DNA from: a bacterium
GTDB lineage: Bacteria; UBA10199; 2-02-FULL-50-16; JAJFLM01
Reading direction: 5' to 3'
Assembly: GCA_965216315.1 (NCBI GenBank)
Contig: CBDCFN010000015.1
Location: 160,001-224,000, forward strand
DNA: 64,000 nucleotides
Shown here piece after piece: positions 29,104 to 60,064 of the stretch. The notes beneath the pieces are model-generated. The model worked only from the letters and a program-made list of their open reading frames with translations, was not told where the DNA came from and did not search any database. Made by a program: the position numbers and the translations under genes. Numbering within the stretch: position 1 is the first letter of the stretch; every line of letters starts with the position of its first letter.

Positions 29104-29117
29104 GGAATTGAATAGGC

Positions 29118-29435
29118 TTATCCCGAGGGAATCAGCAGCCAAATAATCATCCCGACAAGAAGTAGTAACAAGAACCACCATATCTTTTTCCGCGGCTTTT
29201 CACCGCCGCGTGAACGCTCTCGAGCCTGAGCCTCTTCGATGAGATGCAAGGCGAGTCCTTCCGGAGGCATAGCTGCAGCACTCACGGCTGCTGCCTCGCG
29301 TGCTGCGACCACCATCTCACGAAGCTCGGCCGAGGCCAGGCAGGCGGCAAAGGCTTCGTGCATCAGCTCTTCGGGCCACTTCTCCAAGTCAGTCCCGTAA
29401 AGCGACAAATATTCCTTCATTTCGTCGGCTGTCAT
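29118..29435 (-). CDS. Small membrane protein
   Basis: 105 aa; YGTDLEKWPE N-terminus; C-terminal TM helix; GAGGAG SD. Confidence 0.6.
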   Translation of the reverse strand: MTADEMKEYLSLYGTDLEKWPEELMHEAFAACLASAELREMVVAAREAAAVSAAAMPPEGLALHLIEEAQARERSRGGEKPRKKIWWFLLLLLVGMIIWLLIPSG

Positions 29436-29548
29436 CGCTCCTCAAGCAATCACACAATCATGGTAAAAACACACCAAGTTCTTCAAAAATTATTCTCCAT
29501 CTAGGGCCGCTTCACCCCCAATCTGAAGCGATTTCAGCGATTTCGGCA

Positions 29549-29574
29549 CAACATTTCACCAAAAAAACCGATAC
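29549..29574 (+). promoter_or_regulatory. Sigma-28-like promoter CAAC-N14-ACCGATAC
   Basis: Upstream of the slt-like CDS. Confidence 0.45.
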
Positions 29575-29638
29575 ATCTTAGATGCAAACGCAAGATGCAT
29601 CTGGGGCTTGTCTAACGAGCCATAACCCGCTATAAGTA

Positions 29639-31777
29639 TTGACTAATCATCCAGAGTGGAGAGCGATGAGGGCACAATTTATTCACACAATTAGGCCACT
29701 GAGGCGCTGGTTTATCTGCCTGGTTCTGGTCGGCGGGATTGTGGGCCCGGCCACGGCCGTCCACGCTAAGAAGAAATCCGACGACTCAAAACTCCAAGGC
29801 GGCATCGAGGCCTTTGAAGAAGATAACTGGAAAACCGTCCTCAAGAAGCTCAAACCTTTCCTTAACCAGGATAATCCCATTCCCGACTACGTTCTTTATA
29901 TGGTCGGTGTCGCTGAACGTCATGAAGGCGATTGCAGCGAGGCGGCGGATCACTTTGCCAAGCTGCGCCGCAATTATACGCGATCTGTTTTTGCAACCGA
30001 CTCTATTCTCGAAGAAGCGCGCGCTTTAGTCTGCGCCAAAGACTTTGAATTAGGGCGCACCCGGGCTCAGGAATTCCTCAAGACCAAGCCCTATAAGCGA
30101 CTCGCCGCTGAGACTCAGCTGTTGTTGGCTCGTAGTTACTTAGAGTCAGGAGCTAAAGAAACAGCACGCGCTAAACTACGCGATTTTTGGGTTGATGCCA
30201 GCGACGATGACTTGGCCCAAGACGCACTCAAACTTTTAAAGAAAGCGGGGGGCAAAATCTCCGGTAATGATAAATGGCGCCGGGCGCGCCATTTGTATAA
30301 AATGCGCGAATGGGTCCAGGCCAAGAACATATTGGTCGAACTCGGCGCACAAGATAGTTTCCTTTTTGCTGAATGTATCTTTCGCTTGCGCGATTACCAG
30401 CGCGCCAAGAAACTTTTTGAGAGTCTATTGGCCCGTCGCGAGTCGACCGGCAAGGCCCAGGCCCGACTGGCGACGATCAACGCCCGCATTGGCGACTACA
30501 ACTCAGCCATCAAGCACAATCTATCGATCGCCAAGAAATACGCCGGCTCTAAAAAGCAACGCAGCGCCCTTAAGAAAGTTGCTTTCTTACACCGCGATCG
30601 CCAGGAATTTGAAAAATCAGCCAAAGTGCTCCAAGAACTTCTCCAAAAGCCCTTACGTAAACGCGAAAAGATCGAGGCCTTAGAAGATTATGCCTGGGTC
30701 AGCTATCGCGCCGGCAATTTGGATGTTGCGATCAACACGATTGATGACCTGCTTGAGATGAAACTCAACAAAGAACAGGCCGCAAAAATGCTTTTCTGGA
30801 AGGGCAAGATACTCAGCAAACAGGTCGCTGACACCAAAGACAAACAGGAACGCAAAGATCTTCGCAAGCTTGCCCGAGAGACCTTTCGCGAGGCCTGGAA
30901 ACATGACAAATGGGGCTACTATGGACTCTCCGCGCTGCGGGACATGAACGACAAAGATAAAGAAAAGAAATTTTACAGCACGCTTAAGATTGAGGATCAA
31001 CGGCGTGCCCGGCGTATTCGCCAAGTGGCGGTCGACGCTGCACCCTCTATGAATGGGCTCTTTCATCTGCCCCGCGCTCAGGCCCTCCATTCGATGGGGC
31101 GTAAGCGTCTGGCCACGCGCGAGATGAAGGCCGCCTTTAGAGAGGCCAAGGGACGACCCGCACTGATGAAACTCGTTGGGGAAATGGCCTATGAAGTGGG
31201 CAATTATCACGTCCCCATGATTGTCGCCCTCAGAAAACCGGGACTCATGGACCGTCCGGAAGATGCCTGGAATTGGATCTACCCTGCCGCCTACCAACCG
31301 ATTGTCGAACGTCACGCCGGACGTCGGCATCTCGAACCCAACCTTGTTTACTCGATGATGCGCCAGGAATCAGCGTTTCAGGAACAAGTGGTCAGCTCGG
31401 CCGGCGCACGCGGTCTGATACAGATTATGCCCTTCACCGGCCGGCGCCTCGCTCGCATCATGGGCTGGAAGGGATTTAAAACCATTGACCTTTTTGAGCC
31501 CGAGATCAACATCGCACTCAGCACTTTGTATGTACGGATGAACTCTGATCTCTTCGACGGCCACCTGCCCGCCGTCATCGCCTCCTACAACGCAGGCGAA
31601 CACGCCGTGGCTCGTTGGCTCCCCTCGCGACAGCATCTTGATTATTGGGAGTTCATCGAAGAAATTCCTTATCGGGAAACCAACAAATACACCAAACGCG
31701 TCATGCGCAACTATTGGATGTACAATTACATCTACTCAGCCGGGAAGCCCGCCAAGTCCGCCCGCCAAGACACCTAG
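29639..31777 (+). CDS. TPR-containing soluble lytic murein transglycosylase (Slt-like)
   Basis: Signal peptide, helical repeats, RQESAF, GLIQIMP, SYNAG and ETNKY; start may be ATG 29666. Confidence 0.9.
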   Translation: MTNHPEWRAMRAQFIHTIRPLRRWFICLVLVGGIVGPATAVHAKKKSDDSKLQGGIEAFEEDNWKTVLKKLKPFLNQDNPIPDYVLYMVGVAERHEGDCSEAADHFAKLRRNYTRSVFATDSILEEARALVCAKDFELGRTRAQEFLKTKPYKRLAAETQLLLARSYLESGAKETARAKLRDFWVDASDDDLAQDALKLLKKAGGKISGNDKWRRARHLYKMREWVQAKNILVELGAQDSFLFAECIFRLRDYQRAKKLFESLLARRESTGKAQARLATINARIGDYNSAIKHNLSIAKKYAGSKKQRSALKKVAFLHRDRQEFEKSAKVLQELLQKPLRKREKIEALEDYAWVSYRAGNLDVAINTIDDLLEMKLNKEQAAKMLFWKGKILSKQVADTKDKQERKDLRKLARETFREAWKHDKWGYYGLSALRDMNDKDKEKKFYSTLKIEDQRRARRIRQVAVDAAPSMNGLFHLPRAQALHSMGRKRLATREMKAAFREAKGRPALMKLVGEMAYEVGNYHVPMIVALRKPGLMDRPEDAWNWIYPAAYQPIVERHAGRRHLEPNLVYSMMRQESAFQEQVVSSAGARGLIQIMPFTGRRLARIMGWKGFKTIDLFEPEINIALSTLYVRMNSDLFDGHLPAVIASYNAGEHAVARWLPSRQHLDYWEFIEEIPYRETNKYTKRVMRNYWMYNYIYSAGKPAKSARQDT

Positions 31778-31781: not shown

Positions 31782-31822
31782 TGGATAGAAAGTGCTCCAA
31801 ATGCCGGAGCAAAGCTTATCCA
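31782..31822. promoter_or_regulatory. Paired 18-bp boxes upstream of the response regulator
   Basis: TGGATAG-aaag-TGCTCCA and CGGAGCA-aagc-TTATCCA. Confidence 0.45.
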
Positions 31823-31890
31823 TGAAAACCCCCTTAATTCCAATAGTATAGCTTGATTAAGCGCTCTAATTTCCGTAAATCTATAGTATT

Positions 31891-33309
31891 GTGGCACAGG
31901 CTCAGAAATTGCCCGAGCTCAAACCTCAGGTCCTCATCGTCGATGACGATGAGAGCATGCGGGATCTGCTGACGTCTATCCTCAAGGATGATTACGACTG
32001 TTTTCCGACGGCCAGCATCTCGGCGGCGCGCGACGTGCTGCAACATCAAGAAATTCAGGTCGTCCTCCTCGATGTCCGCCTCAAAGAAGAAAATGGCCTC
32101 GATTTTCTCCCCGAAATTCTGGAACTCAATGACCAAATTGAAGTGATTGTCATCACCGTCATTTCGGATGTTCAGACAGCGGTCAGAGCGATGAAGAGTG
32201 GGGCCTTCGACTACATTAACAAGGAATTCGACTACAATGAATTAACCACTATCATTGAACGGGCCTTAGACAAGCAAAAATCAACCAAAGAAATTCTCTA
32301 TCTCCGTGATGAAGTCCGGCAACAAGAACCGGACGATTTTTATTTTGGCTCCAGCCCCCAAATGCTGAAAGCCCGTGAAATCGCCGATCGGGCGGCGCCA
32401 CTCCCAACGACCGTACTCATCACCGGTGAGACTGGAACCGGCAAGGAACTGATGGCGCGCTACATCCACAATCAGAGTCACTTGGCCGATAAACCCTTCG
32501 TTACTGTCAACCTTTCATCGATTCCATCGGAGCTGATGGAATCGATTCTCTTTGGACACGAAAAGGGTTCTTTCACCGGCGCCCACCAATTGCACTACGG
32601 CAAGTTTGAACTCGCGAATGGAGGCACACTCTTTCTGGATGAAATCGGTGAACTGCGTTTTGAACTCCAATCGAAACTGTTGCGGGTCTTGCAAGAGAGC
32701 GAGATCGAGCGGGTCGGCAGCAATAAAATGATTCCCATCCGGGTTCGTCTCATTGCAGCAACTAATGTGGATTTGCAGGAAAAGGTGCACGAAAGAAGTT
32801 TTCGTGACGACCTCTATTATCGACTGAATGTCGTGCCTATCCATATGCCGCCGTTACGCGAACGTGTTGCCGATATCGGCAGACTCATCGAGATTTTCCT
32901 GCAACGCTACAATCGAAAATTCAACCGACAGGTCAAGGCCTTGCAAGCCGACGTGATCGAAACGATCTCTAGCTATGATTGGCCGGGAAACATCCGTGAG
33001 CTGGAGAACCTCGTCGAACGGCTGGTCGCTATCTCCAATAAGGAAACCGTCGGTTTTGCCGATGTTCCCATCGAATACCAGCTCTGCAAGGTAGAAAACT
33101 CCGAGACCAAGGAAGGTGAAGAATTGCTCCAGAAAAGCCTTGACGCCTTTGAGCGAAGTTTCTTACTCCGAATACTAGAAGAGGAGTCATGGAACCAGAG
33201 CCAAGCCGCCAAGCGTCTGGGCATTCACCGCAAGACTCTTGAATATAAAATTAAGCGTCTCGAGTTGGGGGACATCATTCAAAACGAACGTACTCGTACT
33301 CACAATTAA
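31891..33309 (+). CDS. Sigma-54-dependent response regulator (NtrC family)
   Basis: REC domain (VDDD, LLDV), GETGTGKE, GSFTGA, LFLDEIG, WPGNIRELEN and a Fis HTH. Confidence 0.96.
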   Translation: MAQAQKLPELKPQVLIVDDDESMRDLLTSILKDDYDCFPTASISAARDVLQHQEIQVVLLDVRLKEENGLDFLPEILELNDQIEVIVITVISDVQTAVRAMKSGAFDYINKEFDYNELTTIIERALDKQKSTKEILYLRDEVRQQEPDDFYFGSSPQMLKAREIADRAAPLPTTVLITGETGTGKELMARYIHNQSHLADKPFVTVNLSSIPSELMESILFGHEKGSFTGAHQLHYGKFELANGGTLFLDEIGELRFELQSKLLRVLQESEIERVGSNKMIPIRVRLIAATNVDLQEKVHERSFRDDLYYRLNVVPIHMPPLRERVADIGRLIEIFLQRYNRKFNRQVKALQADVIETISSYDWPGNIRELENLVERLVAISNKETVGFADVPIEYQLCKVENSETKEGEELLQKSLDAFERSFLLRILEEESWNQSQAAKRLGIHRKTLEYKIKRLELGDIIQNERTRTHN

Positions 33310-33314
33310 TTTTC

Positions 33315-35327
33315 ATGACAGCAAAGTTTATCCGCAACAGTAGCATCATCTATCTGATGCTCACAGCGGTTCCAAATCTCTACAGCGCCGAGGACGCAAC
33401 CACCGAGTTAACTCAGGTCGTTGTCACAGCGGACAAGCGTGAACAGGAACTCGGCGACACGCCGGCGTCCGTCACGATTATTTCCCGCGATGACATTGAG
33501 AGCCAAGCGGCTGACACGGTGCCTGAAGTCCTGCGCCATGTCGCCGGCGTCGATGTCGTCTCCATCGGAGCACCGGGTGACGATCTGGACATCCGCATGC
33601 GGGGTTCTGATCGAGATGAAGTGTTAATCATGATTGACGGCGTCGCCATCAACAACATCCGCGAGCATCGGGCCTTATTCTTAGGATCGATTCCTTTAGA
33701 TAATGTCGAGCGCATCGAAGTTGTCCGCGGATCCCAAAGCATACTCTACGGATCCGACGCTATCGGTGGTGTCATTAATATTATTACACGCAAGGGGACC
33801 GAAGAGCCTCAATACTTCGTGGGCTTTGAAGCGGGGACACTCCAGCGCTTTAAAGAAACGGCGGGACTCTCCGGGCATCCCGGCAAAAACCGCTATAGCC
33901 TAACTATCTCCCGCACCGACCAAAGAGGGCGCTTTGATCGCGATCGATTCGGTGAAATCGCCGCCTCAGCTAATTTTGGTCGTCAGCTCACTCCAGAAGT
34001 TGATCTTGAGGTGGGCGTCAACTACCTGCATACGAATCAAGACCTTTTTTATGAATTTCTAACCGGTTTTGACCCAGCGACAGGAAGTGTTCAGGTACGC
34101 ATTGATCCAGACCGTAATCGCGATCTCACCCGCGATCTCATCACGGGACGCCTCGCTTTGGAAGCCTACCCGCTACCCTGGTGGCAACTGCAATTTCACT
34201 ATGGTTTGTTCGTCGACAAGGACAGCGTCAGCAACCCCACAACCGGCGACACCGCGCCGACGGGCTTTGCGGTCGGGACGCAGGACTTTTCGGGCACGGG
34301 CTATTCCAATACGATCGACCTCCGCAATTTCTTTACACTCTATGAGTCCAGCCCAATCACCGCCGAACTCCTCGTCGGTTTTGAGTTTCAGGATGAACGT
34401 GTCAGTTTCACCGATCCGCCCCTCACTTTTCCAGGACCTGGTCAAGAAGGTGACCGTCAAAACATCGCGCCCTATGCCCAAATAAGTTTTCGCCTCTTAG
34501 ATGAAACTCTGTTCATCACCGGTGGCGCCCGTTTTGACCGGAATACCACCTTCGGACATGAACTAAGCCCCCGCGCTTCGATCCTCTACAAACTAGAAAA
34601 GACAGGGACTCGTTTTCGGGCGAGTTACTCCGAGGGGTTTCATGCCCCAACGATACTCGAGTTCTTCACCCAGACCTTATTGCGCGATTTAGGAGACCCT
34701 CAATTCCAAGCAATTCGTCTCCAAGAAGAACTCTCGCAGAGTTATGAGGTCGGCGTCGAGCAAGAGCTCTGGGATTGGGGCCAGATTTTCGCAACCTTCT
34801 TTTACGTTGATTATGATCGGCTCTTTGATGAATTGCAGTTTATTCAAGACGCCTTTGCAACCGGCGTCGAAACCGGATTTTCCATCCAACCCTGGGACTT
34901 TTTAGCTTTCGGCGGCAATTACACGCTACTCCATGCCCGCGATGAGACCAATAGCCGCCGCCTCCCCAATCGCCCACGGCACCATTTCAACACTTTTGTG
35001 CAAGGAACTCCGATTAGCGATCTGTCTCTCCGCCTTGATCTTAACTTCGTTAGCAGCCGGCGCGTGCCCGACACGATCAGCACTGCGGCAGGAGACCTCC
35101 CCTTTGTCTTCATCGACCAGAACGGCAACGCGACCAGCGGCACGGTAGGGAGCTACGTCAAACTCAACTTCGCCGCCGCCTATACCTTTCTCAAGGACTA
35201 CGGCCCTTTAAATAACTTAAGGACTTATTTACGCATCGATAATCTCCTGGATCGCAACTACCAAGAAAAATTCGGTTTCCCGGCGCCGGGCATCACCGTT
35301 CGCGGTGGGGCGACGGCGACATTTTAG
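33315..35327 (+). CDS. TonB-dependent receptor
   Basis: VVVTA TonB box, plug (IDGV, IEVVRGSQSILYGSDAIGGVINIIT), NLLDRNY and terminal Phe. Confidence 0.95.
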   Translation: MTAKFIRNSSIIYLMLTAVPNLYSAEDATTELTQVVVTADKREQELGDTPASVTIISRDDIESQAADTVPEVLRHVAGVDVVSIGAPGDDLDIRMRGSDRDEVLIMIDGVAINNIREHRALFLGSIPLDNVERIEVVRGSQSILYGSDAIGGVINIITRKGTEEPQYFVGFEAGTLQRFKETAGLSGHPGKNRYSLTISRTDQRGRFDRDRFGEIAASANFGRQLTPEVDLEVGVNYLHTNQDLFYEFLTGFDPATGSVQVRIDPDRNRDLTRDLITGRLALEAYPLPWWQLQFHYGLFVDKDSVSNPTTGDTAPTGFAVGTQDFSGTGYSNTIDLRNFFTLYESSPITAELLVGFEFQDERVSFTDPPLTFPGPGQEGDRQNIAPYAQISFRLLDETLFITGGARFDRNTTFGHELSPRASILYKLEKTGTRFRASYSEGFHAPTILEFFTQTLLRDLGDPQFQAIRLQEELSQSYEVGVEQELWDWGQIFATFFYVDYDRLFDELQFIQDAFATGVETGFSIQPWDFLAFGGNYTLLHARDETNSRRLPNRPRHHFNTFVQGTPISDLSLRLDLNFVSSRRVPDTISTAAGDLPFVFIDQNGNATSGTVGSYVKLNFAAAYTFLKDYGPLNNLRTYLRIDNLLDRNYQEKFGFPAPGITVRGGATATF

Positions 35328-35401
35328 CGCAAGCTGGCACGCAGATTGAGCCAACAACACGCTGTCTGGACCCCCCAAGACGACGTTTAAGCCCCCCAAC
35401 A

Positions 35402-35441
35402 CGGATAAATTTTATTGAAATTATGCCTAAAAATTTATCCA
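35402..35441. promoter_or_regulatory. Candidate upstream activator sequence (paired boxes)
   Basis: GGATAAATTTT...AAAATTTATCC inverted repeat about 150 bp upstream of the sigma-54 promoter at 35585. Confidence 0.5.
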
Positions 35442-35584
35442 GTTTGCCGACAAAATACAGCGGCCTTGATCCCATTTCCCCGTAATTCTTCCGCCCCAAA
35501 GTCGTTAAATTTACACTATAATTTAGCAGGTTAGGCATCGCCCCCCTGAGCCGCTCTTATCCACATGGTGCAATTTTTCACCAG

Positions 35585-35600
35585 TGGCCCCGCGATTGCA
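35585..35600 (+). promoter_or_regulatory. Sigma-54 promoter of the radical SAM-peptide operon
   Basis: TGGCCC-CGCGA-TTGCA. Confidence 0.7.
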
Positions 35601-35649
35601 TCTATCGACAGCAGCAATTCACGAGTCACCAATCCGGGGGGAGAACGTG

Positions 35650-37041
35650 ATGAAGGGTTCAAGGTTTAATGTCCTGACCCGTGCTCAGGATGACCCGACT
35701 ACCTACTTGCTGTATAATACGCTTCACGATCATCGAATCCTCTTTGATGACCCAGAGTTAAATCCTCGTCGGCTCTTAGCCAAACTCAAAAAAAACGAGC
35801 CCCTCAACCCTAAAGAAACGGAAACAGCGGAAGTCCTTTATGAGATGGGCGTGTTAATCGACGATGACACTGATGAGAATAAGATTTTTAAAGAATGGTA
35901 CCTGGAAAAAATCCAAGAGCGCACGGACTACATGCAAATCACGATCCTACCCACCATGAAATGCAACTTGGCCTGCGATTACTGTTTTGAAAATGATGTC
36001 CGTGAATATGAACGACTAACGCCGGAACGCACCGAACAACTAATTCGCTTTCTCAAAGCACGCGTCAAAACCGTGCGCCCCAAAACTTTTCATATCACTT
36101 TTTTCGGAGGAGAGCCGCTAACCCATCCCGAAGCCGTAAAAGATATTTCCCGACAAATGTGGGAGTACTGTGAGAATTTTCCCGACGTCACAATGGAAAT
36201 CGGCATGATTACCAATGGGGTTTTCTTAACTCCGGAGTTTGTCGATGCGTTGCTGCCATACGGATTTGAATGGGTCAAGATCACTTTTGATGGAGATCGC
36301 GACGAACACGACAAAAAGCGCATCTGGCACAATGGGAGGGGAACTTTCGACACGATTTACGATAATCTTTCCCGGATCGCTGGTAAACTCAAGATAGCCA
36401 TCGGAGGCAATTTCGATCAGGCCAACTACGAGAGTATGTTCAGCCTGATCGAACGCCTCCGTAGCAGCCCTTTCGCCGACGACATATTTATTGCTCGTTT
36501 TAAGCCTATCATCGACGTTCAGCCGGACATCGCACTCAAGCGCGAAGGCGGACGCCTGACCGACGCTTGCAATGTTTGCACTTATAACAACGAGCAAATC
36601 AACCAGATGCAACGACTCCGGCAAAAAACTTTTGAAAGCGGCCTACCGATTGAAGACCGTCCGGTCGTGGGCCCCTGTGAATTTCATCAACACCACTCGA
36701 TGACAATTGGCCCCAATGGCCTGATCTACAAGTGTCCGGCTTTCGTGGGGCTACACAATCTAGCCGCCGGCGATATCTATCACGACGAATTCAACCAGTA
36801 CGGTGAATGGCAGCACACTTTTACTAAATGGGACTCAGAATGTGAAGAGTGCGCCTATTTACCCAACTGCGCCGGCGGCTGTCGCTTCAATGCAGTTAAC
36901 ACAACGGGAAGCTTAGAACCTAAATCTTGTGAACTCAATCTGCTTGTAAAATCCACCGAGAATTTCATGCAGAGGGAAATCGTAAAAATGCGTGCCGACG
37001 GCGAGAAAGAGGAGATCCTCCCCGTTTACTCGGCAGCTTAA
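35650..37041 (+). CDS. Radical SAM/SPASM peptide maturase
   Basis: CNLACDYC, FFGGEP and SPASM (CEF..YKC..CEECAYLPNCAGGC..C), plus an ~85-aa N-terminal possible peptide-recognition domain. GGGGGAG SD precedes GTG 35647/ATG 35650. Confidence 0.93.
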   Translation: MKGSRFNVLTRAQDDPTTYLLYNTLHDHRILFDDPELNPRRLLAKLKKNEPLNPKETETAEVLYEMGVLIDDDTDENKIFKEWYLEKIQERTDYMQITILPTMKCNLACDYCFENDVREYERLTPERTEQLIRFLKARVKTVRPKTFHITFFGGEPLTHPEAVKDISRQMWEYCENFPDVTMEIGMITNGVFLTPEFVDALLPYGFEWVKITFDGDRDEHDKKRIWHNGRGTFDTIYDNLSRIAGKLKIAIGGNFDQANYESMFSLIERLRSSPFADDIFIARFKPIIDVQPDIALKREGGRLTDACNVCTYNNEQINQMQRLRQKTFESGLPIEDRPVVGPCEFHQHHSMTIGPNGLIYKCPAFVGLHNLAAGDIYHDEFNQYGEWQHTFTKWDSECEECAYLPNCAGGCRFNAVNTTGSLEPKSCELNLLVKSTENFMQREIVKMRADGEKEEILPVYSAA

Positions 37042-37073
37042 CATTTCGACTAACGACTAATCCGGAGGTTTAA

Positions 37074-37142
37074 ATGAAAGTATCCAAAGGCAAAAAAGTA
37101 ACAGATCCCAAACCAGCAGTATGCGTACCTGTCGCATTCTGA
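37074..37142 (+). CDS. Candidate RiPP precursor peptide MKVSKGKKVTDPKPAVCVPVAF
   Basis: 22 codons with GGAGG SD, 32 bp after the maturase stop and followed by a strong terminator; below the ORF-track cutoff. Confidence 0.8.
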   Translation: MKVSKGKKVTDPKPAVCVPVAF

Positions 37143-37154
37143 CGCACGAATAGA

Positions 37155-37205
37155 ACAAGAAAAAAGGGTCGCTCTGCCTGGCAGAGTAGATCCTTTTTTT
37201 CTTGT
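37155..37205 (+). terminator. Intrinsic (probably bidirectional) terminator after the precursor
   Basis: ACAAGAAAAAAGGGTC-GCTCTGC-ctg-GCAGAGT-AGATCCTTTTTTTCTTGT. Confidence 0.8.
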
Positions 37206-37240
37206 CGCGCTTTACATTAAGTGGCATGGTCGCCTTCTTC

Positions 37241-38827
37241 ATGCTGGCCCGGCCCGTCGCATTTGTTTCCATTATTCTTGTTTTCCTAGCGTTTATTTCC
37301 TGCACCCAACAAGCCACTCAACCTCAGCAAGGTGGGATTCTGCGCTTAGGCAGCTTTCATAAACCGACCGAGATCAATCCGCTCACCACTGACTCGAGCA
37401 TCTCGGCCAACCTATTAGACCTCATCTTTGACAGCCTGGTTCGATTGGATAGTGAACAAAACATTGAGGCCGAACTCGCTAAACGCTGGGAGGTCTCTCC
37501 GGATGGTCTCCAGTGGACCTTTTACTTGCGCCCGGACATCGTGTTTCATGATGGCACTGCACTAACAGCCGAGGATGTTAAATTTACCTATGATCATATT
37601 ATTAACAGTCATCGGGGTGCCTATACCGTCTATTTTCAGTTTGTTAAAGAGGTCCGTGTCCTCGATACGCATACGGTGCAAATCAGTTTATCTCAATTCG
37701 ACAACGTGTTGTGGACCGGATTGGCCTATGTGGGCATTGCCCCCAAACATTTACTCGCCAAACCCGCAGCAAGCGCCCAATTCAACCAACATCCTATCGG
37801 TAGCGGCGCCTACCGTTTTGTCCGCCGCACGCCTCAAGAAATTATTCTAGAGGCAAACCAAAACTATTACCAACAGCGCCCTTATCTCGATCGCATCGCC
37901 ATCGTCATCTTGCCAAGTCAGGGCGCCGTCTTGAATCATCTGATTGCCGAGCAACTTGATATGGCGTTTCTATTGAATCCAGAAGACTATGGCGCCCTCA
38001 ACCAAATCCCTTCCATTAAAATCTATAATAATTGGTATCCTTTTTTGTACCTCCTCACCCTCGACAACCGCAATCCACTCTTTCGCTCTACAACCAACCG
38101 TCGGCTGCTCAATCAGGCCATCAACAAAGAACAAATTATTCAACGCCTCCTCAAGGACCAAGGGGAGATTGCCGCCAGTACTGTCCCGAGTAAAAGCCCT
38201 TTTTATAATGCCGCAGTGACCCCTTACCCTCATGACCCAAAAGGAGTCGCAAAAATGTTGGCCAAAAGCGGCTGGAAAACCCACAACAAGGACCACATCC
38301 TGCGTAAAAACAATCGTTATTTTGAATTTACCGCTTATGCGATGGAAGGGCATAGTATGGAAGAAAGAATCTTACTTAATGTTCAAGAACAATTACTCCT
38401 CCTCGGCATCAAAATGAACATTACCGTTCTCCCCTTCGATCAATATATAAAGAAAATATTTCGCGAACAGCATTTCGATGCAAATTTGATTTTTTTCGTT
38501 TTTCGAGATTTTTACGGAAACAATTCTAATATATGGGATTCCCAGCAGATCAAAAAGGGCATCAACTATTTATCGTATGCAAACCCTGAAATTGACCGCC
38601 TCTTAAAAACAATTCGCTTAGCGCGTTCCAAGCCCGATCAAATCGCCGCACTCAAAGAATTCCAAAGAATCATCCACGACGACCCTCCCGGTATTTTTCT
38701 CTTTTGGCGCAACATGCCCATTGCCGTTCACAAACGCTTCCGCGGCATTCCTACAGAGCAGATGAAGTCTCTGCGCGATCTTGTGCATGTTTGGGTGCCG
38801 AAGGAGGAGCAGATTTCTAAAAATTGA
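37241..38827 (+). CDS. Orphan peptide-binding lipoprotein (ABC family 5 SBP)
   Basis: Lipobox FISC, INPL, LRPDIVFHDGTALTAEDVKFT and PIGSGAY; no adjacent permeases; start uncertain (37202/37226/37241). Confidence 0.88.
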   Translation: MLARPVAFVSIILVFLAFISCTQQATQPQQGGILRLGSFHKPTEINPLTTDSSISANLLDLIFDSLVRLDSEQNIEAELAKRWEVSPDGLQWTFYLRPDIVFHDGTALTAEDVKFTYDHIINSHRGAYTVYFQFVKEVRVLDTHTVQISLSQFDNVLWTGLAYVGIAPKHLLAKPAASAQFNQHPIGSGAYRFVRRTPQEIILEANQNYYQQRPYLDRIAIVILPSQGAVLNHLIAEQLDMAFLLNPEDYGALNQIPSIKIYNNWYPFLYLLTLDNRNPLFRSTTNRRLLNQAINKEQIIQRLLKDQGEIAASTVPSKSPFYNAAVTPYPHDPKGVAKMLAKSGWKTHNKDHILRKNNRYFEFTAYAMEGHSMEERILLNVQEQLLLLGIKMNITVLPFDQYIKKIFREQHFDANLIFFVFRDFYGNNSNIWDSQQIKKGINYLSYANPEIDRLLKTIRLARSKPDQIAALKEFQRIIHDDPPGIFLFWRNMPIAVHKRFRGIPTEQMKSLRDLVHVWVPKEEQISKN

Positions 38828-38871: not shown

Positions 38872-38955
38872 AGGCGAAAATAAATAGTTTCCAGATAGTC
38901 GAATCTTGCCTAGCAATATTTGAAGTAGCTTTTTTCATGATTTGTAAAGTTGGAG

Positions 38956-39156
38956 CTACTCTTTGTTACCTTCATGGGAGAACGTTGCCAAACTAGTATC
39001 ATTACTATCGTCTGTCGATGAAATGCTTATATCAGCACTAGATAATACAGGCGTTAAAACTGCGCCTTCTTTAACCTTACTTGCAATTTTCCGTACAGCT
39101 TCAATTAAATCTTCAGACCAACCAAGCTTTTCTAATTGTTTATCAAGCTCCATCAT
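38956..39156 (-). CDS. Small hypothetical protein
   Basis: 66-aa ORF 15 bp downstream of the protease-like gene, with the same low GC. Confidence 0.5.
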   Translation of the reverse strand: MMELDKQLEKLGWSEDLIEAVRKIASKVKEGAVLTPVLSSADISISSTDDSNDTSLATFSHEGNKE

Positions 39157-39171
39157 TTTATTGTATAATGC

Positions 39172-40209
39172 CTATATCTGATTTGCACTACGTATTAAAG
39201 AATATTTTTGAGACAGAAACATCTTTACTATCATAGATTTATCAAAAGTATAATAAATTAATGCCCAGAACCTACGAATAGCACGCTGTAGCCCTGGTAC
39301 AGACTCTATCTCGTGGATTTTAAGCTTCAACTCCTCACTAATAGCAACATCTCTTGTAATTCCATGCGCGTGTGATTTCCAATATTCGTTACTGCATAAT
39401 TTATCAGCGATCCATTTTGCACGAGAATACTTCTCTTCTTCCGTGACAGTGTTATTTGTACTAGAATGCTTAGTCCAGTTCTTGAATTTATATTGATTCA
39501 AAAAAGAAGTTGCCATTTTTATCGAATATTCAGATAGGCTTATAGCATCACCTATCTGTCGTTGATCCATTGTATCTACCAGCCTGATGTAGTGCCATGG
39601 AGGGTTGTTGCCTTTCTTCAGTGCTTCCTCGCCATCCTGTTTAATTTTATTAAGTAGTACTAATATAGATTGTGCAGGCACAAGATTGCCATCTTTAGAC
39701 CTTACTTGCGGGTCTATCGGACCTATATACGCTCGCTTATCCATCCAAATATCATCCCCAGATAATGCCCATAACGTGCCCGCACTCATGCATGCATGAG
39801 GAAGAATGAAATTAACGATTTCAAAACGTGGCCTAAGGCAGTTAACAAATTGTGAAACTTGCTGCCCCGAACCACCACCTGTAGCTAGTAAGATGTCAAG
39901 ATCGGTTTGCTGATCATCTATACTACTAACTAATTCATTGAAAGGAAGATCATCGCTAAGATCAATAGACGTATTCGGCAATGGTTTTATGACGTTCGCG
40001 AGATAGCACACAGCTGGGCGCTCTCGAATTTTTTCAACTTCCGCAAGAGCTTTCCTTATATCAGGGATAACGTTTCCACTGCGGGGGACGAATGACACAA
40101 TACTTCCATATTCATTTCCATCCTCCATCTTATCCAATAATGAATCAACCTCCTTTGTTTCTTGCGTTTTCTGACGCCCCCGGGCAATTTGCCGGCTTTT
40201 CCTTCCCAT
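39172..40209 (-). CDS. ClpP/crotonase-superfamily serine protease (SDH_sah-like)
   Basis: LATGGGS, MSAGTLWAL, GPIDPQ and SHAHGI; AT-rich. Confidence 0.8.
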   Translation of the reverse strand: MGRKSRQIARGRQKTQETKEVDSLLDKMEDGNEYGSIVSFVPRSGNVIPDIRKALAEVEKIRERPAVCYLANVIKPLPNTSIDLSDDLPFNELVSSIDDQQTDLDILLATGGGSGQQVSQFVNCLRPRFEIVNFILPHACMSAGTLWALSGDDIWMDKRAYIGPIDPQVRSKDGNLVPAQSILVLLNKIKQDGEEALKKGNNPPWHYIRLVDTMDQRQIGDAISLSEYSIKMATSFLNQYKFKNWTKHSSTNNTVTEEEKYSRAKWIADKLCSNEYWKSHAHGITRDVAISEELKLKIHEIESVPGLQRAIRRFWALIYYTFDKSMIVKMFLSQKYSLIRSANQI

Positions 40210-40277
40210 TTTAAGTATCTTTCATAGCTTTCGTCTCTTCATTAATAGTGAAAAATAGAATTTCTCTGGCAATTGCT

Positions 40278-41570
40278 CTACTTGATCAAACTACAGCCAC
40301 CTGCTGAACTCGAACTCCCACTGCTGATATCCTCTGCAATTTCCCCATCATATTCATCTGCGCCCATATCCGGCACATCCCAAATGACTCGATCATCTCC
40401 ATCAAAATCAGTCTCGAGCATTTGAGGGGCATCATCGTAACCAGTATTTATACAAGGAGATGAGGCCTGAAGATGAAAATCACCATTTTCCGCATCGACA
40501 AAGAGTGGGTCGGCACTGATGCTATCAAATTCTTCTTTCTGAACACTGCATTCAAAACAACTAGCTTTCAATTTTCCATAATTATTATTAAATAAGCGAA
40601 TCAATCCCCCTTTGCCATCATTATTAAAATCAATACCAGAATCAAAATGAATGTCATTGATAGCTTTCCCTAATGGAGTCAAGTTATTCACAATAATGTT
40701 ACTATATAATTCTGCCTGAGCCTCATCTGTTCGTAGCCGCAACAATAAACCACTCCATGTGCCTTCTTCATCTAACGAGAAATTATTTGAAATAGTATTG
40801 TTCACAAGAATTGTATCAGCGCCATCAACCGTATCTGTCACATCTGTTATGGTAAGTGCACCACTACTATTTCTCTCAAAAATATTGCCACTTACAACAA
40901 CATATTCTGCTTCAATATTTGCTCCTCCGCCGGTACCAACATTTAATGAATTATTACTAAATAGATTATTTTCCAGTACGACTGAATCTGCTGTTCCATT
41001 TGATATATTTAGGCCTCCATTAGTATCACTTTCATTATAAATAAAGCGACTATTTCTAACTAAAATAGTGGATGAGCTATTGGAAATTATTAGACCACCG
41101 GCATTAGTATCAAATGAACTAGATTCAATCTTTATATTGACTTTAAATGGCTCAATATTGACTCCACTGAGGTTAGAAGGTTTTCCGTTAGAAAAACTTA
41201 TACCTTCAATAGAAATATTACCCCGGATATTAATTAAATCTAAAATTCCTAACCCACCGCTCATATTTGAACCGTCAATAATTGTGTTGTCTATCCCTTT
41301 TCCGATTAGACTCAGAGAAAAAGACTCTGACTCTAATGGATCGTAAATAAAATTACCTCCCGAGGAATTCTTATTATAAGTCCCAGATTCTAAATAAAGA
41401 TTGTCGTCTTGATTATTTATGCCTGCTAGATTTAGAGCGGCTTGTAAATCACATATCAAATCTGAACAATCGCTATCTTGATCTAAGCTAACAGAAATAT
41501 CAGCAGCATTAGTTTCAACTGACATTAAAAAAATAACGGCGTAGATTACTGCCCATGCTATTTTGTTCAT
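40278..41570 (-). CDS. Secreted right-handed beta-helix protein (choice-of-anchor Q-like) with C-terminal GGCSLIK
   Basis: Signal peptide, Asn/Gly-rich repeats and DPLFVD..DFHLQASSPCI..G..DMGADE. Confidence 0.8.
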   Translation of the reverse strand: MNKIAWAVIYAVIFLMSVETNAADISVSLDQDSDCSDLICDLQAALNLAGINNQDDNLYLESGTYNKNSSGGNFIYDPLESESFSLSLIGKGIDNTIIDGSNMSGGLGILDLINIRGNISIEGISFSNGKPSNLSGVNIEPFKVNIKIESSSFDTNAGGLIISNSSSTILVRNSRFIYNESDTNGGLNISNGTADSVVLENNLFSNNSLNVGTGGGANIEAEYVVVSGNIFERNSSGALTITDVTDTVDGADTILVNNTISNNFSLDEEGTWSGLLLRLRTDEAQAELYSNIIVNNLTPLGKAINDIHFDSGIDFNNDGKGGLIRLFNNNYGKLKASCFECSVQKEEFDSISADPLFVDAENGDFHLQASSPCINTGYDDAPQMLETDFDGDDRVIWDVPDMGADEYDGEIAEDISSGSSSSAGGCSLIK

Positions 41571-41590
41571 TAGATTCCCAGTTTCTATTT

Positions 41591-42691: not shown

Positions 42692-42715
42692 ACGTTACCT
42701 CGCTTTCATTCATAA

Positions 42716-43150
42716 TTACCTTATCTTAATTTCGACCCGCCGATTCCGTGATCGGCCGCTTTCATGGCTATTACTCGCCACTGGCTTTTCTTCCCCAAAT
42801 GACAAAACAATCAGCTGTTCCGGTGCAACCCCCGCTAAAACTAAAAGTTCTTTAATAGTACGCGCACGTTTATCGCCTAAACGTAAATTGTATGCCGAAT
42901 CTCCAATCGCATCGGCATGACCCTCAAGTTGGGCAATCCAACTCGGATGCCGACGAAGATAATCTACTGTCGGACTCAGTTTGCGACGCTCTTCTGATTG
43001 GAGATTCGATTGGTCGGAAGCAAAATACAAAGATGTGAGATCACGTGGTTTTTGGACAATGGGTTCGGGAGCCTTGCGATGAGATGAAGCACAAGCAGAC
43101 ATCATCATGATCAATCCCAATCCAAAGAGTGAAAGGGCCTTAGCGTTCAT
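42716..43150 (-). CDS. OmpA/Pal-like peptidoglycan-binding lipoprotein
   Basis: Lipobox MSAC, EGHAD..G..YNLRLG.KRA, SFGEEKP and NRRVEI. Confidence 0.9.
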   Translation of the reverse strand: MNAKALSLFGLGLIMMMSACASSHRKAPEPIVQKPRDLTSLYFASDQSNLQSEERRKLSPTVDYLRRHPSWIAQLEGHADAIGDSAYNLRLGDKRARTIKELLVLAGVAPEQLIVLSFGEEKPVASNSHESGRSRNRRVEIKIR

Positions 43151-57977: not shown

Positions 57978-58315
57978 TGACGCATAGCAATAAAAGCCAA
58001 TAATAGAGCGGCTTTTTCGAATTCTTATAAACACGCTGCTGGTGATATACTGAGGATTAACTGTGGATAAGTCCCATCTTGGACAAATTCGTATCCATAA
58101 AAAATCCTCTTAAAAATATATCAATTTAGTCATTAATCCCCCGAGTAAAATGCACACGGCATGCCAACCACTTAGTGACGCTATCTTACTGAAATAACTG
58201 CCTAGAGATCAGATCTTGTATCCTCACGGGAACAAACACCGTCTCAAATTGCGTCGGAAGCGTTTCATTTTGAGACGGTTTGCAAGTCTGCCGAAATAAA
58301 CTATAAATACAGCCT

Positions 58316-60064
58316 ATGTGGCTGAAGCACATTTCCATCTCCACCCGACTGATTGTCCTCCTCATCTTTGCCGTCCTGCTGCCGCTGCTTATCTTTGGGG
58401 CCCTTGCCGAATGGCAGGTACGCGAAGCCACTGAAATTTCGGTGACGGAAGGCAACGCCCGCGTAGCCAAACGGGCCGCTGAACAGATTCAACAGTATGT
58501 CAGCAGCGCCCTGACCCTGTTGAAGTCAACCGCCGAAAATATTAACAACGCAGACCTGGCCGATTGGCAAAAAGAACGCATTCTCAAGAATTACCGGAAT
58601 CAATTTGACCAGTTCAACGAACTGACCATCTGGGATCTCCAGAAAAAAGCACTGGCGACCAGTCGCCTCGTCGCGGCTCAGCTCAATCAACGCGAACAAA
58701 AGGCCTATACCGCGGCTTTAAGCGGCAAAATGTATTTATCGCCGGAATACATCCGCGAAGATCTATCGCCGGCCATGGTTGTTGCCGTCCCGCTGAAGCG
58801 ACTCACCGAAGTGAATGGAATCCTTATTGCCGAGTTGAATTTGATGCACATGTGGTACCTCGTCGATAGTATTCGCATTGGTAAAAAGGGCGTGCTCCAC
58901 ATCGTTGACGAAGATGGGCGTCTCCTGGCGACGGGAGATGGCGAACGCAAGAAGAGCGTGTTTCAGGGTGGGCATTTTGAGGCCATGGCATTAATGCCGA
59001 AAATACTCGAACCCCATGGAACCCGCTTTACCAATTTTCTTAATACAGAGGTCCTTTCCGTCGGTACCCGGCTCAAAGATCCTTTGCACTGGAGTGTGAT
59101 CGTCGAACAACCGACGCGCGAAGCCTATGCCCTCGCCACTCGCATTGGGTATTATTTGGCTGCTATCACGCTTCTGTTTTTAGTCGTGGCCTTAGGGTTG
59201 GGCTTTTACAGTGGGAAACGTCGTATCATTGATCCTATCCGCGTACTTTCCGCAGCCACGGAAGAACTGGCCCGCGGTAATCTTGACTATCGCGTTGAAC
59301 TGGATACCGGCGATGAGTTTGAGCAATTGGGCCAAGCCTTCAATGACATGGCAGCACGTTTAAAGAACGTTCAAGAAAAACTGATCCAAGAAGAAAAACA
59401 CGCGATGTTCGGTCGCATTGCCTCGGGACTCGCCCATGACCTCAAGCACCCGATCCAGGCAATTGAAACGTCGAGTCGCCTTATTGATAAAAAGTATGAT
59501 GATCCGGAATTCAGGAGCATGTTTCAACGAACCGTCAATCGCGAATTTAAAAAGATCAATAATTTTCTCAATAATCTACACAACCTCACCCACGACATTC
59601 CCTTCCGCCCCGTACCCATAAAAGTAAACTCTCTGCTCGTTGAAACACTCGAGACATTTGAAGCAACGGCAAATGAACGCGATATCGCGATCGACCGTCA
59701 CTGGGAGGATAACGGCCTCCGCATTGAAGCAGACCCGGCCACCCTCAACCGCGCCCTTTCCAATCTCGTGTCCAATGCCATCGAGGCCATCGGGACTCAT
59801 GGAACGTTGACCATTCGAGCGGAAAAAGTGGACGACCATGTTAATGTCACGGTCCAAGACAGCGGCAAAGGGATCGCCGCGGAACGGCTCAAAAGCCTCT
59901 TTGATGATTTCGTCACGACCAAGCGTCGCGGCCTCGGGCTGGGTCTCGCCATCACGAAGAAAATCATTGCTCAGCATCAAGGCCAGCTTTCGGTAAGCAG
60001 TACCGTCGGGGTCGGCACCCGCTTTGTCATTCACATACCGACCCTACCCACGTCAGAAACTTGA
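58316..60064 (+). CDS. Sensor histidine kinase (periplasmic Cache-like, HAMP, HisKA, HATPase)
   Basis: Two TM helices, GDEFEQLGQAFNDM, AHDLKHP, NLVSNA, DSGKGI and GLGLGL. Confidence 0.95.
   Translation: MWLKHISISTRLIVLLIFAVLLPLLIFGALAEWQVREATEISVTEGNARVAKRAAEQIQQYVSSALTLLKSTAENINNADLADWQKERILKNYRNQFDQFNELTIWDLQKKALATSRLVAAQLNQREQKAYTAALSGKMYLSPEYIREDLSPAMVVAVPLKRLTEVNGILIAELNLMHMWYLVDSIRIGKKGVLHIVDEDGRLLATGDGERKKSVFQGGHFEAMALMPKILEPHGTRFTNFLNTEVLSVGTRLKDPLHWSVIVEQPTREAYALATRIGYYLAAITLLFLVVALGLGFYSGKRRIIDPIRVLSAATEELARGNLDYRVELDTGDEFEQLGQAFNDMAARLKNVQEKLIQEEKHAMFGRIASGLAHDLKHPIQAIETSSRLIDKKYDDPEFRSMFQRTVNREFKKINNFLNNLHNLTHDIPFRPVPIKVNSLLVETLETFEATANERDIAIDRHWEDNGLRIEADPATLNRALSNLVSNAIEAIGTHGTLTIRAEKVDDHVNVTVQDSGKGIAAERLKSLFDDFVTTKRRGLGLGLAITKKIIAQHQGQLSVSSTVGVGTRFVIHIPTLPTSET

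Follow-up and report, generated by a model that had tools for sequence, protein, structure and literature searches.

Genes and predicted signals at the locus

The window, the whole stretch of 64,000 nucleotides that was analysed, carries between positions 31782 and 38827 a conserved set of genes and not a chance neighbourhood. Each element that the sequence-only reading had listed for this segment (regulator, receptor, promoter, maturase, peptide, terminator and binding protein) was recovered, and the coordinates of all parts were confirmed. All parts of the cassette and its predicted signals described below are on the + strand.

The first gene (31891..33309) encodes an NtrC-type response regulator, a sigma-54 enhancer-binding protein with the Pfam domains Response_reg, Sigma54_activat, AAA_lid_14 and HTH_8. 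Residues Asp18-20, Asp61, Thr89 and Lys111, which include the phospho-acceptor, are invariant in 20 orthologs, and Walker motifs and a GSFTGA loop of the GAFTGA type were read by eye in the sequence. The protein scored below the cut-off of every NCBIfam equivalog to which it was compared (NtrC, AtoC, ZraR and LuxO; for LuxO, 310 bits against a model cut-off of 800, so that it is no LuxO). About 70 nt upstream of the gene there is a candidate regulator box (31806..31821), a dyad with one perfect TTATCC half that fits GGAYAA-N4-TTRTCC with 2 mismatches. Taken alone this site is weak, because the whole window holds 9 matches to the pattern against 7.5 expected, which is chance level.

The next gene (33315..35327) starts 5 nt past the regulator's stop and encodes a TonB-dependent outer-membrane receptor of about 650 amino acids, with a Plug domain (100 bits, Pfam) and a barrel, which matches receptor models in two stretches; an N-terminal signalling domain was not detected in it. 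Only one other gene in the genome encodes a Plug domain, and a tonB gene is also present (TonB_C match, 62.6 bits). The best NCBIfam match of the receptor is of the BtuB type, but at 203 bits against a cut-off of 600 it is not a BtuB equivalog.

Upstream of the maturase gene lies a predicted sigma-54 promoter, a -24/-12 element of the form TGGC-N8-TTGCA (35585..35600), which has the GG-N10-GC arrangement and the right distance from the operon; an rpoN gene is present in the genome. An element of the form [TC]GG-N9-TGC[AT] was found upstream of the maturase in all 26 loci compared (CGG in three), whereas the same pattern occurred in 325 of 3000 random 420-nt windows (10.8%). Some 150-180 nt upstream of the promoter is a putative activator region (35403..35440), composed of a GGATAA box at 35403-35408 and, 22 bp apart from it, a dyad at 35425-35440 that ends in TTATCC (35435). 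Both boxes are conserved: GGATAAA is present in 20 of the 26 upstream regions against 2.7 expected, and across loci the boxes are mostly clustered from about -105 to -255 relative to the -24 element. The C-rich repeats at about 35371-35400 have no visible counterpart in the upstream regions of the relatives, as judged by eye and without a count.

The maturase gene (35650..37041) encodes a radical SAM/SPASM protein with an N-terminal RRE-like leader-recognition domain. It matches Pfam Radical_SAM (PF04055) with 66.8 bits and the SPASM model TIGR04085 with 52.3 bits (cut-off 27). The cysteines of the CxxxCxxC motif (C105, C109 and C112) and all seven SPASM cysteines (C343, C362, C398, C401, C407, C411 and C427) are invariant in 30 homologs. 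In an AlphaFold model (pLDDT 88.5), residues 1-90 form three strands and three helices; Pfam PqqD did not match the protein. The best fold match is CteB (5why/5wgg, TM 0.66-0.72), which aligns over the full length including the leader-binding domain, and in sequence, too, no solved structure is closer than that of CteB (5wgg, E 2e-14), at an identity of 16-18%. NCBIfam models for PapB and SCIFF also match, below cut-off. From this resemblance to CteB and PapB-type maturases, the modification is probably a Cys thioether.

Immediately downstream, with its own ribosome-binding site, is the gene for a 22-aa putative precursor peptide (37074..37142), whose N-terminal half is rich in Lys, whose single Cys lies six residues from the C-terminus and whose last residue is aromatic. 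The peptide had no family match at E <= 0.01. All 23 relatives whose sequence extends far enough downstream have an ORF homologous to it, while the pattern derived from these peptides occurred in 87 of 3000 random windows. The peptides of the relatives have 22-25 residues and one cysteine; the core is hydrophobic and aromatic, and histidine is absent from most of the sequences. The peptide gene is followed by an intrinsic terminator (37155..37205), a hairpin with a U-run; the hairpin has a folding energy of -27.7 kcal/mol (z = -5.0), and none of 200 shuffled sequences folded as well. In our own, uncounted reading of the folds, most relatives have a strong hairpin, mostly with a U-run, after the last copy of the peptide gene.

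The last gene of the segment (37202..38827, with ATG at 37226 as the likely start) encodes a family-5 solute-binding protein (PF00496, 247.8 bits) that occurs in all 23 relatives for which there is DNA at that place. Its signal peptide is lipobox-like, and under a strict pattern 14 of 22 orthologs have such a motif. Among solved structures, the oligopeptide binder AppA (1xoc, E 6e-63) is nearest to the protein. As had been claimed, it is an orphan: the cassette holds no permease gene, either in the window or in the relatives, and the adjacent permease and ATPase genes of a family-5 importer are lacking. The permeases encoded at 22803-24665, 11 kb upstream, go with a different binding protein. 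For the receptor and the binding protein of the cassette, the best matches to named NCBIfam models are of the B12, nickel and opine-metal types, all far below cut-off, and they leave room for a ligand that is not a peptide.

The Cache kinase for which the sequence-only reading had hoped does exist, 19.5 kb downstream (58316..60064). This histidine kinase, the presumed sensor of the cassette, has Pfam dCache_1, HAMP and HATPase_c domains, and its Cache region is flanked by hydrophobic stretches of 19 residues, at about 2-35 and 272-301. It is 32-57% identical to the kinases encoded behind the binding protein in relatives, and it is the only full-length match in its own genome. A GGATAA box and a 1-mismatch dyad (58065..58096) lie about 220-250 nt upstream of the gene; no sigma-54 element was seen beside them.

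Distribution of the cassette among genomes

The maturase was found in 26 of 93 genomes of the phylum to which the window belongs, giving 26 loci, the window and 25 relatives. The gene order in the relatives is NtrC-type regulator, TonB-dependent receptor, sigma-54 promoter, radical SAM/SPASM maturase, peptide, terminator, family-5 binding protein and dCache histidine kinase. Apart from the peptide, these loci have only five protein families in common: the maturase (26 loci), the binding protein (22), the receptor (22), the regulator (20) and the kinase (17, including one paralog at locus L114). Orthologs of the regulator, 49-73% identical, are at the loci of 19 of the 25 relatives, and receptor orthologs at 21. 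In 12 relatives the binding-protein gene is followed or overlapped by that of the kinase, an arrangement that suggests translational coupling. An MFS transporter gene lies between these two genes in only 3 of the 25 relatives. As had been claimed, no exporter or protease gene is adjacent in the window, and neither an exporter nor a leader peptidase is among the families shared over the 26 loci.

The association also holds at the level of whole genomes. Kinase orthologs are present in 24 of the 26 maturase-bearing genomes but in only 2 of the remaining 67; the two that lack one, G030 and G031, are fragmented assemblies. The counts for the receptor are likewise 24 of 26 and 2 of 67, the two exceptions among the 67 being the same as for the kinase, and a 25th receptor was found by tblastn in the maturase-bearing genomes. 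Genomes G089 (96% complete) and G090 (84%) retain orthologs of the receptor, regulator and kinase, and a maturase was not detectable in either. The sequence-only reading had expected a short Lys-rich ORF with one Cys, an orphan binding protein, a TonB receptor, a Cache kinase and an NtrC regulator to accompany homologs of the maturase; they do so both at the locus and across genomes, and the homologous maturases thus occur in this neighbourhood.

A version of the cassette is also found in a second phylum. Loci in Acidobacteriota have the regulator, the sigma-54 promoter, the maturase, a homologous peptide, the binding protein and the kinase, with no receptor adjoining the cassette; the receptor is thus not essential to the design. 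The genes might be neighbours merely by chance or through shared ancestry of gene order, with unrelated functions. Such an explanation would draw on the fact that we infer every one of the functions, and on the several genomes in which parts are 6-19 kb apart or on separate contigs, but it is strongly disfavoured: two phyla share the same set, with its orientation rearranged (divergent in L108, L112 and L129-L132), the co-occurrence in 24 of 26 against 2 of 67 genomes is hard to reconcile with it, and the conserved promoter type requires exactly this class of regulator.

The quorum-sensing-like circuit that had been proposed is partly supported, in that its gene set, its sigma-54 promoter and its regulator-type boxes are all conserved. 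A wider regulon was not seen. A crude scan of the genome for a promoter with at least two boxes gave 9 matches among 947 motifs, with about 4 expected by our own estimate, and the maturase promoter was the only convincing one of this type. A self-contained feedback module is therefore better supported than a global quorum-sensing regulon.

Divergence of the parts and comparison with known systems

The binding protein is the fastest-evolving part of the cassette, with a mean pairwise distance of 0.71 against 0.41 for the regulator, as would be expected if the ligand changes with lineage. In the kinase, the sensor part is more divergent than the cytoplasmic part (0.68 against 0.53). Distances for each protein were compared with those for the last six residues of the peptide by partial Mantel tests over 13 related loci, with regulator distance controlled. 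The receptor gave r = 0.57 (p = 0.0006), the binding protein r = 0.34 (p = 0.013) and the kinase r = 0.29 (p = 0.02), while the maturase (r = 0.12) was not significant. The test is known to be liberal and n is 13, so that co-variation of the receptor and binding protein with the C-terminal core of the peptide is suggestive only.

These data bear on the idea that the cue sensed by the receptor, binding protein, kinase and regulator is an external one, for instance oligopeptides of foreign or environmental origin, and that the modified peptide is an output, for example an antimicrobial, and not the ligand. AppA is a general oligopeptide binder, two genomes hold the receptor, regulator and kinase without the maturase, and neither an exporter nor a wider regulon was seen, all of which would fit. 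We nevertheless regard this as unlikely, since it does not lead one to expect that variation in the receptor and binding protein goes along with that in the peptide core once regulator divergence is controlled, that the binding protein evolves fastest, or that the binding-protein and kinase genes lie directly behind the peptide gene in the same direction of transcription.

Contact between the binding protein and the kinase was addressed by predicted docking to the kinase sensor domain, which scored 0.39 (best of 3 controls, 0.00). Of 157 solved complexes, 116 reached the mark used, as did 2 of 215 mismatches; at values of 0.60 or below, only 18 of the 157 complexes did so, together with both passing mismatches. 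The runs agreed in at least 78% of contacts, with a partner pLDDT of at least 84. The prediction lends weak support to such a contact. The evidence that would pair the kinase with the regulator is simply their co-occurrence.

Searches of a library of papers found no description of this cassette. The nearest named system is that of the geopeptides, which is defined in silico only (TIGR04229 peptide and TIGR04280 maturase). TIGR04280 is the best-scoring named family for the maturase, and a true member in Geotalea (L012) is adjoined by a histidine kinase and an NtrC-type regulator. However, the maturase scores 249.7 bits against a cut-off of 400 (632.7 for the Geotalea control), and the 22-aa peptide does not match TIGR04229 (Geotalea control 40.5 bits, cut-off 30). 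The geopeptide precursor, with an acidic leader and a Cys-Cys motif, is encoded upstream of its maturase, whereas here the precursor is downstream, Lys-rich and with one Cys, and is followed by a family-5 binding protein. CteB/CteA, SCIFF, the ranthipeptides and PapB are similar in the sequence or fold of the maturase and in a Cys-containing substrate, but the precursor described here has one Cys and not several, and its host is diderm. Dedicated sensing genes are not known to be part of CteB/CteA-type systems.

On the sensing side, two-component systems that sense a modified peptide and activate its own biosynthetic promoter are known from lantibiotic autoinduction (NisK/NisR for nisin, SpaK/SpaR for subtilin). 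Those are monoderm systems with sigma-70 type promoters in which the kinase sees the peptide directly; in the cassette, the signal would also have to pass through an outer-membrane receptor, a periplasmic binding protein and a sigma-54 activator. Control of an NtrC-type regulator by an orphan periplasmic binding protein and a membrane kinase is known from LuxP-LuxQ-LuxO (AI-2) and AioX-AioS-AioR (arsenite), but here the ligand is presumed to be a peptide that the cassette itself produces.

The methanobactin operon has a TonB-dependent transporter (MbnT) and a family-5 binding protein (MbnE) beside a RiPP precursor, and the recovery of PQQ through PqqU is a comparable case of a released RiPP being taken up again. 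By analogy, the peptide could be a secreted public good, for instance a RiPP that binds metal or resembles a cofactor, which the receptor and binding protein would recover while the kinase and regulator tune production to uptake. A TonB receptor paired with a family-5 binding protein next to a precursor is the methanobactin layout, the binding protein is detectably related to MbnE (5icq, E 3.6e-17), and the sub-threshold nickel, opine-metal and B12 matches point in the same direction. We consider this improbable, as the precursor has one cysteine, mostly no histidine and a hydrophobic, aromatic core in which metal-binding residues are not evident; neither an inner-membrane permease nor a further tailoring enzyme is conserved, the binding protein being coupled to a kinase instead of a permease; and the maturase, closest to thioether-forming enzymes, is of a different class from that of methanobactin, which has no radical SAM enzyme.

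In streptide systems the signal is a separate pheromone (shp/rgg) and the RiPP is the output, whereas in the cassette the RiPP itself is the candidate ligand. Streptococcal radical SAM RiPPs, streptide and its relatives, are reported to be short modified peptides tied to a quorum-sensing circuit (PMC11851443).

A candidate circuit for sensing a self-made peptide

The reading that we favour, to which we assign a probability of roughly 60%, is that the cassette is a self-contained circuit that produces and senses a ribosomal modified peptide (RiPP). The promoter at 35585 would drive expression of the maturase and the 22-aa precursor, and the terminator behind the peptide gene would limit read-through into the binding-protein gene. 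The N-terminal domain of the maturase may recognize the Lys-rich leader, and the enzyme would most likely link the single Cys to one of the five C-terminal residues in a thioether, by CteB-like chemistry. The mature peptide would then exit the cell, be re-admitted to the periplasm by the TonB-dependent receptor and be bound by the family-5 lipoprotein. The loaded binding protein would act on the periplasmic dCache domain of the kinase, which would set the phosphorylation state of the NtrC-type regulator; the latter would bind the GGATAA/TTATCC boxes and activate the sigma-54 promoter. Positive feedback is the simpler reading of this loop, but it may instead be of the kind known from LuxPQ-LuxO, in which ligand binding turns signalling off.

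A broader version of this reading, which we put forward tentatively and hold to be somewhat less likely than even, is that of a native diderm autoinducer circuit. In it, a mini-peptide cross-linked by a radical SAM enzyme would be released, re-admitted by a dedicated TonB receptor, presented by a lipoprotein to a dCache kinase and read out through a sigma-54 activator on its own promoter. The receptor, binding protein and core would co-diversify into lineage-specific 'pherotypes' in at least two phyla, and some genomes would keep the listening parts only.

Signalling by modified peptides is textbook knowledge for Gram-positive bacteria but, to our knowledge, has hardly been described for bacteria with an outer membrane, which blocks the access of peptides to periplasmic sensors. 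Our analysis suggests that the cassette is an undescribed way for such bacteria to sense a peptide of their own. It is a complete, conserved and compact candidate solution, in which the biosynthetic genes are accompanied by an importer, a binding protein, a kinase and a sigma-54 activator, and with so few components it could be rebuilt in a laboratory host. It also adds an uncharacterized family of radical SAM/SPASM maturases and precursors with a minimal substrate of 22-25 residues, and for two proteins, an orphan family-5 binding protein and a TonB-dependent receptor, it suggests a ligand that can be tested. Should the co-variation between the receptor parts and the peptide core be upheld, the cassette would be a case of signal and receptor diversifying together in uncultured lineages.

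Cassette genes and predicted chemistry

The sequence-only reading had described a co-oriented run of genes at 31782-38827, and ORF listing together with Pfam and NCBIfam scans found all of the reported genes to be real. An NtrC-type response regulator (31891-33309, + strand) is followed by a TonB-dependent receptor (33315-35327, +) that begins 5 nt past it, then by the radical SAM/SPASM enzyme, or maturase (best start 35650, end 37041, +), and a family-5 solute-binding protein (37202-38827, +). The regulator has an HTH_8 domain as well as a GSFTGA loop and Walker motifs (both read by eye), and its receiver residues Asp61, Thr89 and Lys111 are invariant among 20 orthologs. The claim of a 22-aa peptide gene with its own terminator also held: the raw sequence contains a 22-codon ORF at 37074-37142 (+) with a GGAGG ribosome-binding site, followed by a hairpin and U-run (-27.7 kcal/mol, z = -5.0; none of 200 shuffles was as stable). 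As had been noted, no exporter or protease gene lies in the run, nor does a permease gene, and an Rfam scan of the cassette found no riboswitch or other RNA family. The hoped-for Cache kinase (58316-60064, +; dCache_1, HAMP and HATPase_c domains) was found inside the window, but 19.5 kb downstream of the run. It is the only full-length match within the window's own genome, where the receptor is one of just two Plug-domain genes and where rpoN and tonB genes were also found.

The CxxxCxxC motif and all seven SPASM cysteines of the maturase are invariant among 30 homologs; 476 homologous proteins were retrieved altogether, many from short metagenome contigs. Its best named family is TIGR04280, the in-silico "geopeptide" maturase (249.7 bits; cut-off 400), and the next NCBIfam matches (CefB, TIGR04463, FlmE/OhkG and PapB) are all under cut-off. 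The closest solved structure, by sequence and by fold, is the thioether-forming CteB. An AlphaFold model of the maturase (pLDDT 88.5, pTM 0.87) matches 5why/5wgg over its full length with TM 0.66-0.72, including an N-terminal domain of three strands and three helices of the leader-recognition type. Given the likeness to CteB, the most likely chemistry would be a thioether between the single Cys of the peptide and a C-terminal residue.

Upstream of the cassette, 21738-31777 is a cell-wall turnover neighbourhood, with a GH3 (NagZ-like) enzyme, an S13 D-Ala-D-Ala carboxypeptidase, two lytic transglycosylases, and two ABC permeases with a second family-5 binding protein, lacking an adjacent ATPase gene. 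Apart from weak cross-matches of that binding protein to the one in the cassette, the four proteins of this neighbourhood used as tblastn queries had no qualifying match in the loci of relatives. Elsewhere, the window carries RNase P RNA and a tRNA at its left end (125-568 and 1781-1853, both -), a 1892-aa ORF (11523-17201, -) with no Pfam family but a weak kinase-like stretch at residues 1518-1569, and, at its right end (61693-64000, +), a gene for a TPR/SlipAM-type surface-lipoprotein assembly protein with, after it, one for a FecR-domain protein that continues past the window's edge.

Conservation in the phylum and beyond

The phylum sample consisted of 93 species genomes; the class-level search already covers these 93, and a search at phylum level yielded nothing further. 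At E <= 1e-60, the ortholog threshold for the maturase, kinase and receptor genome searches, a maturase ortholog is present in 26 genomes, including the window's own (2.96 Mb, 98% complete). Kinase and receptor orthologs are each present in 26 genomes as well, and each overlaps the maturase-bearing set in 24. The co-occurrence of maturase homologs with the receptor and Cache kinase, which the sequence-only reading had proposed to look for, is therefore seen in 24/26 genomes versus 2/67 genomes without a maturase. The kinase match is absent from G030 and G031, whose assemblies comprise 350-530 contigs. The search for the receptor returned nothing in G030 and G038; in G030, the gene can be seen in the fetched locus (L123). 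The two genomes with kinase and receptor orthologs and no maturase, even by profile search at E <= 1e-10, are G089 and G090. In both, the receptor adjoins the regulator, the kinase is on other contigs, and no binding protein was found beside the kinase (loci L135-L138). These genomes may be listeners only, or their assemblies may have gaps.

Loci of the 25 relatives, with flanks of up to 9 kb either side of the maturase, were searched by tblastn with the window's proteins. Of these loci, 23 have the binding protein, 21 the receptor, 19 the regulator and 16 the kinase. Many of the missing neighbours are explained by contigs that end within ~1.5 kb of the maturase, as happens in 8 of the 25 loci (L110, L113, L114, L117, L121, L123, L125 and L126). 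All-against-all clustering of ORFs of at least 70 aa from these loci gave no further shared family beyond lineage-local synteny or antisense shadows; thus, the cassette consists of five proteins and the peptide.

Small ORFs downstream of each maturase were listed without constraint other than a ribosome-binding site. A homologous ORF of 22-25 codons was present in all 23 relatives with more than ~130 nt of downstream DNA, L113 and L117 being left out of the count as cut contigs, and in locus L111 (10399-10713) the precursor gene occurs in three tandem copies. All the peptides have a Met-Lys-Ile/Val start and a Lys-rich N-terminal half, end in hydrophobic, mostly aromatic residues, and contain exactly one cysteine, always six residues from the C-terminus. 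By sequence they form three groups, which track maturase identity to the window's enzyme (~55-59%, 38-45% and 34-39%). A pattern for the peptide recovers 24/24 usable sources, which is no independent test since it was drawn up from the same peptides, and it matches 87 of 3000 830-nt windows drawn at random from these loci. Behind the last peptide copy, most loci have a strong hairpin, mostly with a U-run after it (folds read by eye and uncounted).

The kinase gene overlaps the binding-protein gene or starts within ~120 nt after it in 12 relatives, namely L110, which is of the same family as the window's genome, and 11 others. The two genes are 5.7 kb apart in L130, and the kinase is ~11 kb away in G055 and ~19 kb away in G018, so that the displaced kinase of the window is one among several rearranged cases. 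In L109, L111 and L115 an opposite-strand MFS transporter gene lies between binding protein and kinase. These transporters are orthologous (43-46% mutual identity) and are candidate exporters; the window's cassette has none, and its genome has only a homolog with 25-32% identity, located elsewhere.

The segment that separates the binding-protein and kinase genes in the window spans 19.5 kb (38900-58300), and GC drops to 38-40% at 38-42 kb. Its products include an SDH-type ClpP-like protease, a DUF5123/choice-of-anchor-Q protein, OmpA and PEGA proteins, a weak Bdellovibrio-type adhesive-fibre N-domain protein (42 bits, under cut-off), a 1469-aa cyclase-STAND-TPR protein and a 1530-aa Ig-repeat protein. 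No integrase was seen in the segment, and the five proteins compared, all from 39.2-44.1 kb, found no counterpart among the loci of relatives at 50% coverage or more.

A contig scan with the maturase alignment relied on generic radical-SAM patterns and returned mostly distant enzymes; the useful matches were five from Acidobacteriota and a few geopeptide-type loci. The Acidobacteriota maturases are 30-34% identical to the window's. An NtrC-type regulator lies just upstream in four of the five loci, the fifth contig beginning at the maturase, and a family-5 binding protein lies downstream in four, with a Cache kinase after it in three. Three loci have a downstream one-Cys peptide with a leader in the Met-Lys-Ile/Val-x-Ile/Val-Ile/Val style. 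A TGGAAC-N5-TTGC sigma-54 element occurs in all four loci having upstream DNA, and by eye a GGACAA-N4-TTGTCC palindrome is present in at least one. No receptor gene was found in these five loci.

The geopeptide locus of Geotalea resembles the window's cassette in having a kinase and an NtrC-type regulator beside the maturase. Unlike the cassette, it passes both NCBIfam models, and its precursor is acidic, has a Cys-Cys pair and is located upstream of the maturase. The window's cassette is therefore regarded as a sister design and not as part of the geopeptide family.

Promoter elements and the scan for a wider regulon

The proposed sigma-54 element was confirmed in the raw sequence as TGGC-N8-TTGCA at 35585-35600; a transcript from it would be expected to begin at about 35612 and to stop at about 37200. 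All 26 loci have a [TC]GG-N9-TGC[AT] element upstream of the maturase (three with CGG), mostly 30-90 nt ahead of the start codon; among 3000 random 420-nt windows, 325 contain the same pattern. GGATAA/TTATCC boxes are enriched ~105-255 nt further upstream, with GGATAAA in 20/26 upstream regions versus 2.7 expected, and are often paired as two copies ~21-22 bp apart. The window carries a GGATAA box at 35403 and, at 35425-35440, a dyad whose last half is TTATCC. The C-rich repeats near these boxes are not common to the upstream regions of relatives (by eye, uncounted).

Weaker candidate copies of the dyad precede the regulator gene by ~70 nt (31806-31821) and the displaced kinase gene by 220-250 nt (58065-58096). 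Only their placement near cassette genes is suggestive, with the window-wide total at chance level (9 matches versus 7.5 expected). A genome-wide scan for the promoter with at least two boxes retained 9 of 947 motifs, with ~4 expected by our estimate. Seven of the nine lie inside or against ORFs, and no second convincing target was accepted.

One intergenic hit of the scan is located outside the window, at G000:C15:358028 (+) in the window's own genome. It is a sigma-54-type element preceded by two TTATCC/GGATAA boxes; a GC hairpin and T-run lie ~85 nt downstream, and no ORF is present. This may be a small sigma-54-dependent RNA.

Possible peptide sensing and the reading of the circuit

Whether the sensing parts recognise the peptide was approached along four indirect lines. 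First, among solved structures the binding protein is closest to the oligopeptide binder AppA (1xoc, E 6e-63) and further removed from nickel, opine and methanobactin binders.

In the 13 loci with a complete set of six parts, mean pairwise distance is highest for the binding protein (0.71), followed by receptor (0.58), kinase (0.56), maturase (0.53) and regulator (0.41), and the periplasmic part of the kinase diverges more than its cytoplasmic part (0.68 versus 0.53). Partial Mantel tests against the distance of the last six peptide residues, controlled for regulator distance, gave r = 0.57 for the receptor (p = 0.0006), 0.34 for the binding protein (p = 0.013), 0.29 for the kinase (p = 0.02) and a non-significant 0.12 for the maturase. 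Because the 13 loci are related and the test is liberal, this apparent co-variation of the sensing parts with the C-terminal residues of the peptide is only suggestive. When the mature binding protein was modelled in complex with the periplasmic domain of the kinase, the score was 0.39, against 0.00 for the best of three controls, with a contact agreement between runs of at least 78% and a partner pLDDT of 84 or more. The mark used is reached by 116/157 solved complexes and 2/215 mismatches, and at scores of 0.60 or under by only 18/157 solved complexes and both passing mismatches; the prediction lends weak support to a docking of the binding protein on the kinase sensor.

We put the probability that the cassette is a self-sensing RiPP circuit at about 0.6. 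Its wiring would be as the sequence-only reading proposed, the peptide being made, re-imported, bound and sensed, and the kinase at 58316-60064 would be the missing part. There are two main rivals: a sensor that detects an external cue, with the RiPP as its output, seems unlikely, and the recovery of a public good such as a metallophore appears quite improbable. Simple quorum sensing has several points against it. Neither an exporter nor a leader peptidase is conserved in the cassette, the genome-wide scan gave no second convincing promoter target, the receptor is dispensable in Acidobacteriota, and two genomes retain the sensing parts alone. In addition, the sign of the loop cannot be taken from sequence: in LuxPQ-LuxO, ligand binding switches sigma-54 output off.

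The titles and abstract openings retrieved in literature searches contained no description of the cassette, and those retrieved with "geopeptide" matched only unrelated lipopeptide names. All parts of the cassette are of known kinds and only their assembly is new. The output of the circuit may be a report of density, a nisin-like autoregulation of an antimicrobial, or steady production.
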